From the IMG/VR virus record IMGVR_UViG_3300045988_101452: 41,581 nt of DNA. One strand, given 5' to 3'. Source of the DNA: a virus. The notes beneath the pieces were generated by a model that was not told the DNA's origin, did no database searches, and was given only the letters and a program-made list of their open reading frames with translations. A program made the position numbers and the translations under genes. Below, in pieces: positions 12,344-32,569 of this stretch (position 1 is the stretch's first letter; each line of letters begins with the position of its first letter).

Positions 12344-12415
12344 TTCAGGATAACGGGATTGAACCGTTCTATTCTAGCTTATGAAACTAGCGTGACGCCT
12401 TGCCACCCATCCTGT
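12344..12415 (-). tRNA. tRNA-like element with CAU anticodon loop (Met-like); non-canonical (A1-A72 mismatch, G8G9)
   Basis: hand-folded cloverleaf: acceptor ACAGGAT/ATCCTGA, D GTGG/TCAC, anticodon stem CTAGT/GCTAG with loop TTCATAA, T-arm AACGG-TTCAATC-CCGTT. Confidence 0.35.
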
Positions 12416-12793
12416 TTGAAGCGAAGTTTTACATACTATCAAATGGAAGTCCTCGCAAACCATTTAATACTGAACTCCTAGCTTTGAAGCCCACAATAGC
12501 AAGATAGAGGCTCGAACTCTATAACTTCTAATAGCGAAGTCGTTTCTATTCCTTGCTTACCCACTAAGCTGCTGAAAAACATTGGAAACCCATTTAACTT
12601 GCAATCCTTACGCAAGCACTTAGCTATAAACGTTTAATAGCAAGTCAGGGAGTCGAACCCTAACAAGCTTAGAAGTATATCCAACCGAACGAATTACATT
12701 TTGTTTGCTTTCGCTGATAACTTCATGCTACCATTATCGCATGTAAATCAGGAAATAAATGGGTTAAAAACGGGTCAAAAACGGAACGCAAAA

Positions 12794-28664: not shown

Positions 28665-28692
28665 TTTCTCCTTAATCATGTCTTGCCCGACA
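28665..28692. repeat. 28-bp perfect direct repeat copy B, upstream of integrase
   Basis: identical to 24196-24223. Confidence 0.9.
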
Positions 28693-28710
28693 ATAGAGCA
28701 GGAGAAAAAA

Positions 28711-29892
28711 ATGAATATTAAAGAAGTCAAAAAAAAAGACGGTACAACCGTCTATAAAGTAAATGTTTATCTTGGTGTAGATAGCCTAACAGGTAAGCAA
28801 GTACGTACCACGGTTACAGCCAAGAACCGTAAAACGTGCGAGAACAAAGCTCACCAAGCTATGAATAAGTTTATCAAAAATGGGTCTACTGTTGCAAGAG
28901 AAAAAGTTTCATTTGACAATTTTAATGCCTTAGCCGCTAGTTGGTTTGATTCTTATAAATTGACAGTAAAAGCAAATACTATCAGAATCAATAGTAATTT
29001 TTTAAAAAATTATATTTTGCCAGCGATCGGAAACTATAAAGTTGAGAAAATTACAACTATACTATTGCAAAATATTGTTAATGACTGGGCTAGAAATGCC
29101 AATACTGCTGAAATAGTTAATGGTAATCGTGAGAAGGGAAAAAGCAAAGACTATAAGCTATTACTCAATATCATCAAACGCATTCTCGATTATGGTATGC
29201 AACTAGGTGTCATCTCAGACAATCCAGCTATAAAAGTATTTTCTCCAAAACTTAAGACAAGAACAGTCAAAAAAATAAAGTATTTTAATAATGATGAACT
29301 TAAACGCTTCTTAGCTTACCTTGACACTTTAGAATCAACCACAGCAAATAAAAAGAGCGCTACTCTATACAAGCTTTTACTTGCTACTGGTTTGCGTATC
29401 TGTGAGGCTTTAGCCTTATCATGGTCTGATATTGATTTTGTCAATAATACCGTTAGTGTATCTAAGACACTCATACAATACAGCAATGAGATACAAGACA
29501 GTGCAAAAACAAAAGAAAGCAATCGTTTAGTTTCTGTAGATAGCGAGACAATTTCAATGTTGAAAGAGTGGAGAAAACAACAAAATGACGGTGCTATATC
29601 TTTGCATGATTCTTTAGTTTTCTCATATCATCAAAAAATGAGAACTTACGAACTCGAAAGACAGCACTTAGTTCGACACTTTAAAAACGCTAAAGTTCCT
29701 AACATAGGTTTTCATGGTTTCCGTCACACTCACGCAAGCCTACTAATGAACAATGATGTAAATCCTAAAGAAATTCAAATGAGATTAGGACATGCAGATT
29801 ATTCAATCACAATGAATTTGTACAGTCATCTTGCTAAAGAGAAAAAGAAAGAAACTGCTGAAAAGTTCGCTAATATACTTAAAGCACTATGA
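28711..29892 (+). CDS. int: tyrosine integrase (phage integrase family)
   Basis: RHTHASLL and LGHADYSITMNLYSH catalytic motifs; GGAG RBS. Confidence 0.85.
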   Translation: MNIKEVKKKDGTTVYKVNVYLGVDSLTGKQVRTTVTAKNRKTCENKAHQAMNKFIKNGSTVAREKVSFDNFNALAASWFDSYKLTVKANTIRINSNFLKNYILPAIGNYKVEKITTILLQNIVNDWARNANTAEIVNGNREKGKSKDYKLLLNIIKRILDYGMQLGVISDNPAIKVFSPKLKTRTVKKIKYFNNDELKRFLAYLDTLESTTANKKSATLYKLLLATGLRICEALALSWSDIDFVNNTVSVSKTLIQYSNEIQDSAKTKESNRLVSVDSETISMLKEWRKQQNDGAISLHDSLVFSYHQKMRTYELERQHLVRHFKNAKVPNIGFHGFRHTHASLLMNNDVNPKEIQMRLGHADYSITMNLYSHLAKEKKKETAEKFANILKAL

Positions 29893-29911
29893 TTTTTTGA
29901 GTTTTTTTCCG

Positions 29912-30201
29912 AACGTAACTAAAAACGTAACTAACTGATATAATGACATCTGAAATCCCTTTATATAAGGGGTTCTAAGGATTTGTTGTGATACAGAGCT
30001 ATTATGGCATACTGTGTCAATAAATGTCAATAGATACCGCTAAACCTTGTTTTGTGGGATTTATAAAAATTATTGTACTAATGAATATCTATGAGTTACT
30101 TCTAAAACGTAACTAAAAACGTAACTAATTTTTGTCGGGCAAGAGGCTGTATATCTAAGATATACAGTTTTTTTATTTTAATTAACGTAACTAAAAAAAC
30201 T
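29912..30201. repeat. attP-like region with iterated aacgtaactaa(a) units (candidate integrase arm-type sites)
   Basis: aacgtaactaaaaacgtaactaa at 29912-29934 and 30106-30128; partial at 30185-30201. Confidence 0.6.
30147..30178 (+). terminator. plus-strand terminator ctgtatatct-a-agatatacag + T-run
   Basis: 10-bp perfect inverted repeat then tttttttatttt. Confidence 0.6.
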
Positions 30202-30239: not shown

Positions 30240-30313
30240 TGGTTCTTGCTGGACTCGAACCAGCGACCGAACGGTTATGAGCCATTAGCTCTGACCAACT
30301 GAGCTAAAGAACC
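30240..30313 (-). tRNA. tRNA-Met (anticodon CAU)
   Basis: canonical cloverleaf by hand: GGTTCTT acceptor, D-arm AGCTCAGTTGGTCAGAGCT, anticodon loop CTCATAA, T-arm GCTGG-TTCGAGT-CCAGC. Confidence 0.8.
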
Positions 30314-30438
30314 GAGTATGATAATCTGTAGCACTTATAAATTTATAAGTGTGGACGGTACTGCAGATTATCAAAGATACTGTAAAAGAAATAATTTTCT
30401 CGTCCACTAAATATATTATAACACACTACTATAAATAA

Positions 30439-30580
30439 TTGACAATTGTCTGAAAAATTGATAATATTTAAATTGTTAGTGCCTCCTATGTTTTGTATAT
30501 AGTAAACTTTTTCTGAACTTGTACTAACACACATCATCCTCTAGTTGGACTCCTTGAAGTCATCCAGCTAGAGCTTTTTT
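30439..30580 (+). ncRNA. candidate sRNA: promoter TTGACA-17-TAATAT (30439-30467) to terminator T1 (30539-30580); about 105 nt, contains CCUCC
   Basis: near-consensus promoter and 11-bp stem + U6 terminator; no ORF. Confidence 0.35.
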
Positions 30581-30585
30581 ATTTG

Positions 30586-30609
30586 AAAAAAGCCGCTCCG
30601 AAGAGCAGC
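30586..30609 (-). terminator. minus-strand terminator T2 (GCUGCUC-UUCG-GAGCGGC + U6)
   Basis: inverted repeat with UUCG tetraloop and U-run. Confidence 0.55.
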
Positions 30610-30659
30610 TAATGAGGAGAGTAAAACTCTTCATCGATGTCCAATAATATTATAGCACA

Positions 30660-30777
30660 AAAAAAGCCCCGCGAGAGTGAGGCATTTAGCAAAATATGCA
30701 GTGAGTATTTCATGGATTAAAATACTCAGTGATTATTTATGGTAACTAATTATAGCGCTATCATTATTTTTTGTCAA
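30660..30777 (-). ncRNA. candidate sRNA: perfect-consensus promoter TTGACA-17-TATAAT (30777-30749) to terminator T3 (30684-30660); about 80 nt with a 12-bp hairpin
   Basis: exact consensus hexamers with 17-nt spacer; internal inverted repeat cactgagtattt/aaatactcactg; U7 after hairpin. Confidence 0.4.
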
Positions 30778-30809
30778 GAAAAAAGCGTCCCAGTTAGGAG
30801 AGAGACGCT
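30778..30809 (-). terminator. minus-strand terminator T4 (AGCGUC...GACGCU + U6), directly abutting the consensus promoter
   Basis: inverted repeat agcgtc/gacgct, A-run 30778-30783 on plus. Confidence 0.5.
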
Positions 30810-30870
30810 TAGGAGTCTTTATGAAAAATTTTTTTTGGAATAAGAACATTATATAACTTTCCGTTCTTTT

Positions 30871-30901
30871 TGTAAAGAAAAAGCCCTGACCGAAGCCAGG
30901 G
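30871..30901 (-). terminator. late-operon terminator T5 (CCCUGGC-UUCG-GUCAGGG + U-rich)
   Basis: 7-bp stem with UUCG tetraloop right after stop of the last lysis ORF. Confidence 0.6.
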
Positions 30902-30906
30902 TTAAT

Positions 30907-31032
30907 TTATTTTCTGCTATTTAATTCAGCCAAGATAATCAGACCGACAACTATAATCAGCCAAATCCACCAGTAATCTAAAAATAGTTTCATATCGGGC
31001 AATTCTTTTATTCTTTGGAAAAATTCTACCAT
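30907..31032 (-). CDS. small membrane ORF (41 aa) immediately downstream of endolysin
   Basis: ATG 3 nt after lysin stop; MVEFFQRIKELPDMKLFLDYWWIWLIIVVGLIILAELNSRK. Confidence 0.35.
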   Translation of the reverse strand: MVEFFQRIKELPDMKLFLDYWWIWLIIVVGLIILAELNSRK

Positions 31033-31035
31033 AGT

Positions 31036-31953
31036 TTATTTCCAAGCAATTTCTACTGTTTTTTGATTGATTGCTTGCATGAAACGGACGTACCAAGGTG
31101 CATCTGTTCTCCAACTATACTGTTTCAAGTCTTTTCCTGTTGTCTCTTTATAGATTTGACGAATAATTTTAAGTTGATCTTCATGAGACAAAGCAACTAC
31201 TTTATTTCCATCATAGTAATAAATAGTTCCTTGCGTTTTTCCTGTTTTTGCATCAATAATTTGATATGTAAATTTCATAAGGTCATCATCCTCCAATTGT
31301 GAATTATTATTTGCGTTATTGTTATTTTGTTCTGTAGAATTTCCACCAGCTAGTTGCTTCCATTGATTAGCGTTGATATAAGCCAAGTTCAAATCAAGCT
31401 GTCCGTTCCAGTTCATTAAAGTTCCTGACGAGCTATACTGATGAATCGCTGCAGAACTCCAAGCGCCATATCCTTTGCCATCTGACCAAGGTTCTGATTG
31501 ATAGCCTGTAGGACTTGTAGAAGCATATTGAGCAACCCACAAAGCATTACTACTTGAAATAGTACTCCAATTAAACTGACGAGTGACTTCTGCAGACATG
31601 TAAATCATTGGATTGATGCCCGTTTTTTCTTTTACACGATTCAAAAATTGACGAGCACCAACATTTCCCCATGCGTTGATTGCCCCAGCTTCGAAATCTA
31701 AGACGAGAACTGCTTTACCAATATATTCTTTAACAACACTGATAAAGAAGTCTGCCTCAGCGATTGGATTTCCAGTGCTAGCGAAATGATAGAAACCTAG
31801 AAGCTTATTTGCTTGAGTGACTTGACCAGCTTGTTCTCGCCAAGTTGGATTAATATATTTTGTTCCCTCAGTAGCTTTAATAAATACAAAGTCAGAAGGA
31901 ACAATTCCAGCATTCAATTCTGCTTGATAGCTGGAAATGTCAATTCCATTCAT
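31036..31953 (-). CDS. endolysin, GH25 muramidase N-terminal domain + C-terminal cell-wall-binding domain
   Basis: MNGIDISSYQ...FVFIKATEG...GFYHF motifs of GH25 lysozymes. Confidence 0.8.
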   Translation of the reverse strand: MNGIDISSYQAELNAGIVPSDFVFIKATEGTKYINPTWREQAGQVTQANKLLGFYHFASTGNPIAEADFFISVVKEYIGKAVLVLDFEAGAINAWGNVGARQFLNRVKEKTGINPMIYMSAEVTRQFNWSTISSSNALWVAQYASTSPTGYQSEPWSDGKGYGAWSSAAIHQYSSSGTLMNWNGQLDLNLAYINANQWKQLAGGNSTEQNNNNANNNSQLEDDDLMKFTYQIIDAKTGKTQGTIYYYDGNKVVALSHEDQLKIIRQIYKETTGKDLKQYSWRTDAPWYVRFMQAINQKTVEIAWK

Positions 31954-31962
31954 AATAGCCTC

Positions 31963-32424
31963 CTATTCTTCAGTGAGTCCTTCTGTTCCATTAATAATTG
32001 GTTCCACAAGATTAGCCAGTTCTTCAGCATCGGTAGAAATATTATCTGCTGTTTTAGACACTGATTGAGCAACTTCAGATGTAGCTTGTGCAACCTCTTT
32101 AATAGTTTTAACTGGGTCAGAAGTAAAATTCTTTTTCAATTGAGCCAAAGAAGCTTCAATTTGAGCTTCAATCTGAGCGGGATTAGTTTTGATTTTAATT
32201 CGTTTAGCCTCTTCTGTCACATAGTTAATAGCTTCAGACAACTTCTCAGGGTTCTCGTTGAAGTTCTTTTCTGCCCAAGTCACTCCTTGATTTGCCAATT
32301 TAGCTAAAGCATCGATATTTTTTACATTGCTATGCTTTTTAGCTGCCTGTGAGATGAAGTAAGAGACTACTGTTCCTACTAAAGTTAAAATACCGCTAAA
32401 GATTGTCATTAAATTTTGATCCAT
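31963..32424 (-). CDS. holin (LL-H-type architecture: one N-terminal TM, long charged tail); start at MDQNLM with GAGGA RBS
   Basis: position immediately upstream of lysin; TM IFSGILTLVGTVVSYFI. Confidence 0.5.
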   Translation of the reverse strand: MDQNLMTIFSGILTLVGTVVSYFISQAAKKHSNVKNIDALAKLANQGVTWAEKNFNENPEKLSEAINYVTEEAKRIKIKTNPAQIEAQIEASLAQLKKNFTSDPVKTIKEVAQATSEVAQSVSKTADNISTDAEELANLVEPIINGTEGLTEE

Positions 32425-32569
32425 TTTATTTTTCCTCTTTCTTGAATGAGCTGAAGTGTTGCATTGTGTCGCCTTGATAGCTCGCGACATCAATACCGTT
32501 TGTGTTGGCTGATACACTACCTGCGATAACAACATCTGAAATACTATTTACTTGCATGTTATTTCCCCT

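Follow-up and report, generated by a model that had tools for sequence, protein, structure and literature searches.

The window analysed here, a stretch of 41,581 nucleotides (nt) from IMG/VR record IMGVR_UViG_3300045988_101452, comprises the whole genome, circularly permuted, of a temperate Lactococcus phage of the P335 group; in it, a tRNA gene with anticodon CAU and a non-coding island sit between the integrase and endolysin genes (Table 1). In the annotated phage collection, all matches of the island and its flanks are to Lactococcus or unnamed phages; the right half of the window, 21.6 kilobases (kb), used as a query, matched mostly Lactococcus phages (4268, BK5-T, bIL286 and the CHPC series) and a few Leuconostoc, Streptococcus and Staphylococcus records. 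An initial annotation of the island, made from its letters alone, had proposed consensus promoters, stacked terminators and small RNAs (sRNAs) there; we therefore examined its predicted transcription units, their conservation in related phages and their possible function.

Predicted transcription units of the island

The minus strand carries, in order, the late-operon terminator T5, cassettes A, B and C2, and a leader with the tRNA(CAU); one plus-strand unit converges on C2. T5, T4, T3, T2 and the plus-strand terminator each combine a G+C-rich hairpin with a following U-run, as in intrinsic terminators; T5, T3 and T2 come from a terminator scan, T4 and the plus-strand terminator from reading and folding. 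By their sequence, the promoters belong with sigma-70/sigma-A sites: one scores 12/12, one 11/12 and one 10/12 plus a TG, and two are extended -10 boxes. The unit bodies measure 55-110 nt and hold either a single hairpin or an A/U-rich stretch without structure. The elements listed in the initial annotation are all present. Scan and direct reading together recover its four stacked minus-strand terminators, and the UUCG loops that it assigned to two of them belong to T5 and T2. The promoter TTGACA-17-TATAAT that it placed beside T4 (30777-30749) scores 12/12 and is the sole exact consensus in the window; its plus-strand promoter TTGACA-17-TAATAT (30439-30467) is accompanied by a TG extension, and its plus-strand terminator with an 11-base-pair (bp) stem has that stem at 30539-30573 and a T-run to 30580. 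The two short minus-strand RNAs that it proposed, one of about 80 nt with a 12-bp hairpin ending at T3 and one of about 55 nt ending at T2, reappear as the predicted transcripts of cassettes B and C, the latter of ~58 nt. A single coordinate needs correction by one base: the TGcTATAAT box adjoining T3 lies at 30657-30649, not 30658-30650. Two promoters had been missed, an 11/12 site at 30876-30848 and the TGtTATAAT box at 30423-30415; because the 11/12 site stands between T5 and T4, this interval constitutes a third minus-strand cassette, A. The T-run of T5 runs into the -35 box of the cassette A promoter, and the 10-nt loop of T4 is UCUCCUAACU, inside the motif CUCUCCUAAC. The island is non-coding, as had been claimed: its longest open reading frame (ORF) has at most 64 codons, and no ORF is conserved in relatives.

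Table 1. Features of the island, its flanks and related loci (positions refer to the window unless a locus is named)
Feature	Position	Strand	Basis or content
Tyrosine integrase	28678-29892	+	
tRNA, anticodon CAU, called Met	30240-30313	-	ARAGORN; Rfam tRNA 66.7 bits
Structured leader, ~95 nt, upstream of tRNA	30314-30408	-	13-bp stem UGAUAAUCUGCAG / CUACAGAUUAUCA around apical hairpin
Leader-tRNA promoter, extended -10 TGtTATAAT	30415-30423	-	Read from sequence
Plus-strand promoter, TTGACA-17-TGaTAATAT	30439-30467	+	Promoter scan
Plus-strand predicted RNA, ~105-110 nt	30474-30585	+	Long-range stem GUUAGUGC/GUACUAAC, then 11-bp terminator hairpin
Cassette C predicted RNA, ~58 nt, body variant C2	30585-30642	-	Small hairpin with ACUCUCCUCAUUAG, then T2
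T2	30610-30591	-	UUCG loop; terminator scan
Cassette C promoter, extended -10 TGcTATAAT	30649-30657	-	Right after T3 T-run; read from sequence
Cassette B predicted RNA, ~80 nt	30660-30742	-	Hairpin 30738-30692, apical loop with AUCCAUGA, then T3
T3	30683-30666	-	Terminator scan
Cassette B promoter, TTGACA-17-TATAAT, exact consensus	30749-30777	-	Promoter scan
Cassette A predicted RNA, ~55-60 nt	30784-30841	-	A/U-rich unstructured 5' part with CAU...ACUCCU, then T4 hairpin
T4	30809-30784	-	AGCGTCTC, 10-nt loop, GGGACGCT, then T-run
Cassette A promoter, TTTACA-17-TATAAT, 11/12	30848-30876	-	Promoter scan
T5, terminator of late (lysis) operon	30901-30884	-	CCCTGGCTTCGGTCAGGG then T-run, UUCG tetraloop; 7 pairs, 5 GC, then CTTTTTCTTT
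Endolysin	31036-31953	-	
Holin	31963-32535	-	
Armless 61-nt form of the tRNA	L001 2507-2567, L005 67-127, ~20 other loci		Sequence GGTTCTTTAGCTCAGTTGGTAGCTAACCGTTCGGTCGCTGGTTCGAGTCCAGCAAGAACCA
phrog_11039 ORF calls across cassettes A and C	L004 128-370, L016 221-475, L005 253-489, L008 1846-2043		

The density of these elements exceeds that of shuffled sequence. On the minus strand of 30314-30930, one parser counted three cassettes, four terminators and five promoters, against means of 0.05, 0.23 and 1.25 in dinucleotide shuffles, none of which (0 of 300) reached three cassettes. Promoter matches with at most one mismatch number three in the whole window against 0.86 expected, two of the three being in the island; the terminator scan returned six sites in 2.5 kb against 1.2 +/- 1.2 in shuffles. 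Fold prediction, one of the checks proposed for the island, places the window RNAs of B (-20.1 kcal/mol, z = -4.9), the leader (z = -4.0), the plus-strand unit (z = -3.3) and C2 (z = -3.2) beyond their shuffles; that of A is not (z = -1.0), which fits a mostly unstructured RNA.

Conservation, duplication and exchange of units in related phages

Sub-blocks of the island recur in 68 phage records. Downstream of the lysin, all 17 annotated phages inspected have a row of units, each consisting of a promoter, 40-110 nt and an intrinsic terminator, in which the T-run of each terminator passes directly into the next -35 or TGnTATAAT box. With IMG/VR loci included, 52 distinct arrays contain 193 cassettes (median three per array, maximum ten), with a median predicted RNA of 64 nt; terminators number 5.4 per kb in the sense direction versus 1.9 per kb antisense, and the distance from a terminator to the next -10 box is bimodal (5-14 and 25-39 nt). 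The predicted RNAs form 36 clusters, of which ~20-25 are genuine cassettes and the remainder gene ends. This taxonomic range is that of the phage and IMG/VR collections, and many unrelated loci drawn by the first IMG/VR pattern, a UUCG terminator, were removed by BLAST. A 17-mer scan of contigs used too short a query, so that 85 of its 86 matches look like chance, the one in L. cremoris HP being the only real match; a single weak match came from the plasmid collection. An array of this kind is absent from Skunavirus (936-type) phages with the same C-terminal domain in the lysin, where the count is 0.38 cassettes per 1.5 kb on either strand.

Cassette A occurs in the majority of the ~50 related loci, phage and prophage. 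Its -10 box does not vary in 28 distinct homologues, and its -35 box, at 17-18 nt spacing, survives replacement of the spacer or the upstream sequence (loci L056, L022 and L118); across the 28 distinct copies the T4 hairpin is 99% paired and the terminator is nearly invariant, loop included, with a variable 5' body. Many relatives also have cassette X or Y, neither of which is in the window. X and A look like diverged duplicates because they have in common the motif TATTCCAAA and a homologous terminator. Cassette B is missing from most relatives, but an identical promoter precedes B-type bodies in D6867, D4044, bIL311 and further loci, and it yields the clearest covariation signal of all units: in seven distinct copies of B and its bIL311-type relatives, 6 of 15 pairs are changed on both sides with pairing kept, around an invariant loop ATCCATGA. 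The TG and -10 box of the cassette C promoter are invariant in 32 distinct homologues, behind a terminator and behind unrelated sequence alike. The C2 body recurs in three loci (L108, L086 and L051), and most phages have another body, C1, between the same promoter and terminator; among the 32 distinct copies of cassette C, pairing in two C1 helices stands at 98%, and both partners have changed in two of the pairs. Units duplicate, diverge and swap between phages at common promoter/terminator junctions.

In 19 distinct homologues of the plus-strand unit, the -35 box, the TG, the -10 box and the terminator are invariant, with 94% column identity (alignment A4). The initial annotation had stressed a CCUCC motif in its RNA; this is not a defining feature, since most relatives carry CCUCU or CUUCU. 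A perfect 10-bp palindrome, GACAATTGTC (30441-30450), overlaps the -35 box of the plus-strand promoter and is located between that promoter and the divergent tRNA-leader promoter. It is fully intact in 16 of the 19 homologues, with a G-to-A change at the eighth base in the other three, and may be an operator.

The array is not tied to one set of neighbours. The lysin before it varies (GH25, or an amidase type as annotated in D4044), with other terminator hairpins in the place of T5, and so does the recombinase after it (a tyrosine integrase in both D6867 and the window, a gene annotated as DNA-invertase in D4044). Among phages without an integrase gene beside the array, 4268, P335 and CHPC836 keep A and C only, and phi31 keeps A, C and X; in ul36, X, A and C are accompanied by part of the plus-strand unit and by a stretch related to the tRNA. 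Its retention in these phages argues against an att-specific or purely lysogenic role, and the regulators specific to lysogenic conversion that had been suggested for the island are not supported, given the presence of A and C in all five.

One relative offers a possible link to published transcripts. The record of phage TP712 (AY766464, at about 41,585-42,010) shows the array Y-X-A-C-leader-tRNA-like, and L. lactis MG1363 carries t712. Differential RNA sequencing of MG1363 detected 28 sRNAs in prophage intergenic regions (PMC4829306), some of which are candidate products of array cassettes, given the homologous array in TP712. Host species and phage group are the same in both cases; the portion of that report available to us differs from the present analysis in giving no locations, family structure or comparative analysis.

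The leader, the tRNA and the borders of the array

The last unit of the array is the tRNA(CAU), and the integrase-specific region of the phage attachment site attP starts just past it. The -10 box of the leader-tRNA promoter is conserved in 16 distinct homologues, and the 13-bp stem of the leader is kept in 16 sequences with zero pairs changed on both sides; co-variation between GUGGAcG/CgUCCAC and GUGGAuG/CaUCCAC is visible in the alignment. The window tRNA is recognized by both ARAGORN (as Met) and Rfam and has a cloverleaf that includes the anticodon arm. With G1-C72 and just two G-C pairs in the anticodon stem, it is no initiator; presumably it is closer to tRNA-Ile2, which is modified with lysidine, than to elongator tRNA-Met.

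A full tRNA(CAU) is present in 8 of 29 related loci (nine genes, as L118 has two), and none is called in the other 21. The aligned copies without a called tRNA have a 61-nt form in which the acceptor, D and T arms are retained but the 5' anticodon stem and loop are missing. This form is passed over by ARAGORN, scores 37.8 bits with the Rfam tRNA model in the four armless loci scanned and folds with z = -3.0; L118 also has a third variant with the same acceptor and T arms and a different anticodon stem. Like other phages with tRNA genes, the phage of the window has a tRNA(CAU), which closes the array behind a promoter of its own; most relatives, however, carry the armless form, which could not decode and may be a processing or stability module. 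Direct repeats specific to the integrase start immediately 3' of the tRNA or tRNA-like element in each phage, so that this element is where the integration module is bounded. On its genome map, prophage phiKW2 has a 'predicted unspecified tRNA', and the phiKW2 attR is similar to the sequence of locus L009 that directly follows the tRNA-like element on its 3' side (PMC3757294).

Between the integrase stop and the tRNA of the window lie three exact copies of AACGTAACTAAAAA (29912-29925, 30106-30119 and 30184-30197) and a 37-nt repeat (29898-29934 and 30092-30128), which together are probably the integrase arm-type sites of attP; other phages have a repeat motif of their own at the equivalent place (GTAGCA, GTGCCAAA or AGGGGCA). 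The same interval contains a plus-strand terminator-like hairpin with a 15-bp stem (30141-30173), ~250 nt beyond the integrase stop. At the opposite border, a minus-strand ORF of 41 codons (30907-31032; MVEFFQRIKELPDMKLFLDYWWIWLIIVVGLIILAELNSRK) begins 4 nt past the endolysin stop. Its product, a single hydrophobic helix with a charged tail, has no match among the PHROG families and could be a small lysis-associated membrane protein; its DNA is kept in phage 4268 at 94% identity. Elsewhere in the window, the minus strand of an intergenic region between early and packaging genes (12344-12720) holds three T-arm-like motifs (GGGTTCGACTCCC, AGAGTTCGAGCCTCT and CGGTTCAATCCCG) at ~130 nt spacing, of which ARAGORN calls only the last as tRNA-Met (Rfam 24.8 bits versus a threshold of 29); the three may form a cluster of tRNA-like genes that are degenerate or unusual.

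Possible functions of the array

Conservation, shuffling and kept structure are what genuine small-RNA genes would look like, and judged by sequence comparison the units are probably real ones. The small-RNA reading of the initial annotation thus stands as regards short autonomous promoter-to-terminator units, non-coding and conserved, shuffled and structurally kept in ~50 related phages, and falls as regards toxin-antitoxin elements (see below) and a lysogeny-specific role. To the fuller interpretation, in which autonomous small units of non-coding transcription, or RNA-only morons, make up the island as a modular array and act by the mechanism set out below, we give about an even chance. Morons, defined for HK97/HK022-type phages, are autonomous promoter-gene-terminator units inserted between phage genes. 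The array units are likewise independent, each with a promoter and a terminator to itself; they occupy the interval from the lysis genes to attP, and their number and order change from phage to phage. Unlike morons, they carry a non-coding payload of 55-110 nt in place of a protein gene and are arranged head-to-tail, with the tail of one terminator overlapping the next promoter. A second likeness is to the tandem or multi-copy anti-Shine-Dalgarno sRNAs of Firmicutes, Listeria LhrC1-5 and the streptococcal cia-dependent csRNAs, which are also short RNAs with their own promoter and terminator and serial paralogues, and whose C/U-rich unpaired motifs complementary to ribosome-binding sites may have a counterpart in the cassettes. 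The array units differ from them in being phage-borne and shorter, in matching them neither in sequence nor by covariance model, and in having plain sigma-A promoters that are not regulator-dependent.

That the cassettes are small protein-coding genes, either micro-ORFs or the 66-84 amino acid 'hypothetical proteins' annotated in phiLC3, 50101, TP712 and D7138, is scarcely credible. Those annotated ORFs do match phrog_11039, a family of 'unknown function', and cassette A in the window has on its plus strand an AGGAG followed by an 11-codon ORF. However, the phrog_11039 calls span promoters and terminator hairpins, their starts and frames differ between variants, and the length read from the same start ranges from 0 to 65 amino acids, so that phrog_11039 is unlikely to be a true family of proteins. 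Cassette A variants often differ by indels of 1-2 nt, the 11-codon ORF loses its ATG in 9-10 of 28 of them and otherwise has 7-11 codons, a near-leaderless ORF in cassette C was rejected for inconsistent frame and start, and the ORFs of the window island have no PHROG match. A genuine-looking coding unit in cassette format does occur in L118 (7640-7905), where a promoter, the ribosome-binding site AGAGAGGAA and a terminator frame a gene for a membrane peptide of 47 amino acids, rich in glycine and with two helices (MKKGNMGLGIGTGLCLGVAFGIIFHNLAMGIGIGLLFGLAFDYGKKK); the same slot therefore houses protein morons and RNA cassettes alike. Closer still to refuted is a toxin-antitoxin-like RNA element of type I or III, which the initial annotation had suggested. 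The convergence of the two RNAs at 30580-30591, at the att-proximal prophage end where such systems are found in other Firmicutes, would suit it, but the terminators are back-to-back and the RNAs do not overlap, neither convergent RNA has a hydrophobic toxin ORF with a ribosome-binding site, and the island, with ORFs of at most 64 codons, has neither an adjoining endoribonuclease gene nor tandem ~35-nt repeats, its only repeats being two-copy promoter/terminator similarities.

Three further explanations accept the promoters and terminators and deny the RNAs a function of their own or give the units another one. The array may be a passive transcriptional insulator, with stacked terminators that stop read-through into attP and the opposed lysogeny genes and with promoters that are relics or by-products of A/T-rich tails; this is unlikely without being negligible. 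Its constant place behind the last late gene, the strand bias of its terminators, the overlap of T-runs with -35 boxes and the failure of the search of the phage to find an RNA target all agree with insulation. For that purpose one or two terminators would suffice, and it leaves unexplained why cassettes are multiplied up to ten per phage, why exact or near-exact hexamers at 17 nt spacing are kept where their surroundings have been swapped, and why conservation extends to loops and bodies dispensable for a plain terminator, with stems that co-vary. Alternatively, and with a smaller chance, the short common junctions are homologous-recombination linkers that form DNA-level boundaries of the lysis, moron and integration modules among P335 phages. 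The exchange of C1 and C2 bodies between identical promoter/terminator ends, the B body with an A-type terminator in D4044 and the start of integrase-specific sequence right after the tRNA or tRNA-like element are as such linkers would have them; shuffling is thereby accounted for, but neither the consensus promoter and terminator identity of the junctions nor the conserved loops with compensatory stem changes, and linkers are compatible with RNA-only morons, not exclusive of them. Highly improbable is a design like that of lambda PR'-tR', in which each unit would terminate transcription close to its promoter until a phage antiterminator allowed read-through via attP, antisense to the lysogeny genes, into early lytic genes. 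Each unit does pair what reads as a strong constitutive promoter with a terminator within 55-110 nt; in CHPC836, 4268 and phi31, which lack the integrase, cro and an antirepressor gene lie downstream of the array on the same strand; and by eye cassette X seems able to fold into an alternative to its terminator. Against antitermination, no antiterminator gene or conserved loading site was identified, serial terminators each with a fresh promoter differ from the known design, and the tRNA would be in the read-through path.

In the mechanism that we propose for the RNA-only morons, host RNA polymerase would transcribe the units constitutively, from the prophage and early in infection, and their products would act as RNAs. 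Most likely, C/U-rich anti-Shine-Dalgarno-like unpaired motifs, such as CUCUCCUAAC in the A terminator loop and ACUCUCCUCAUUAG in C2, would pair with the ribosome-binding regions of host mRNAs; the stacked terminators would also block read-through from the late operon into attP and the lysogeny genes. Lactococcus, to our knowledge, has no Hfq. Anti-Shine-Dalgarno-like 4-mers reach 36 per kb on the RNA strand versus 6.6 per kb in late-gene sense sequence (5.5-fold) and are twice as frequent as their complements, unpaired positions have a C:G ratio of 151:73, and several array terminators have unusually large C/U-rich loops. The resemblance of these motifs to base-pairing sRNAs of Firmicutes is suggestive only, and pairing to ribosome-binding sites is a tentative proposal, with the balance of probability against it.

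Several observations weigh against the array of small-RNA genes or against pairing as its mode of action. Cassette transcription is a prediction from promoter sequence and comparison. The relatives are closely related and recombining, so that conservation is partly shared ancestry, and covariation is sparse in units other than cassette B. In the window and ten related arrays, Rfam finds the tRNA alone at its gathering threshold, with otherwise chance-level matches up to E 10. Anti-Shine-Dalgarno-like 4-mers outnumber Shine-Dalgarno-like ones in only 12 of 25 families, and GC-rich terminator stems inflate the counts of both motif sets. Complementarity of cassette RNAs to the rest of the phage extends to at most 11-12 nt, which is chance level, with none of at least 13 nt; none of them, in RNAduplex comparison with 41 phage translation-initiation regions, beats shuffled sRNAs; and, with up to two mismatches allowed, the window contains no complement of the A loop. 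Target prediction, recommended initially for the plus-strand RNA, therefore gave no phage target above shuffled controls for any of the small RNAs.

The literature searched on P335 non-coding regions, tRNA and BK5-T transcripts leaves the array undescribed, and we found no prior description of a modular array of moron-like non-coding sRNA cassettes; so far it has been unannotated or labelled 'hypothetical protein' (phrog_11039). A more speculative extension, to which we assign a low probability, is that P335 phages keep a fast-shuffling toolkit of ~20-25 tiny constitutive sRNA families and an armless tRNA-like RNA, which would reprogramme host translation or blunt RNA-targeting abortive-infection defences, both as prophage and in lytic growth; the tRNA-like RNA, an oddity in its presence in most relatives, would then serve as a handle for RNase P and CCA processing or as a decoy and not as a decoder. 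The compact design, in which a terminator tail doubles as the next promoter, offers a ready set of insulated expression parts, and with the array the concept of the moron comes to include payloads that consist of RNA only. Most Lactococcus starters used in dairies harbour P335 phages and prophages; a conserved constitutive small-RNA block would, if true, be an overlooked layer of phage-host interaction in this industrial organism.

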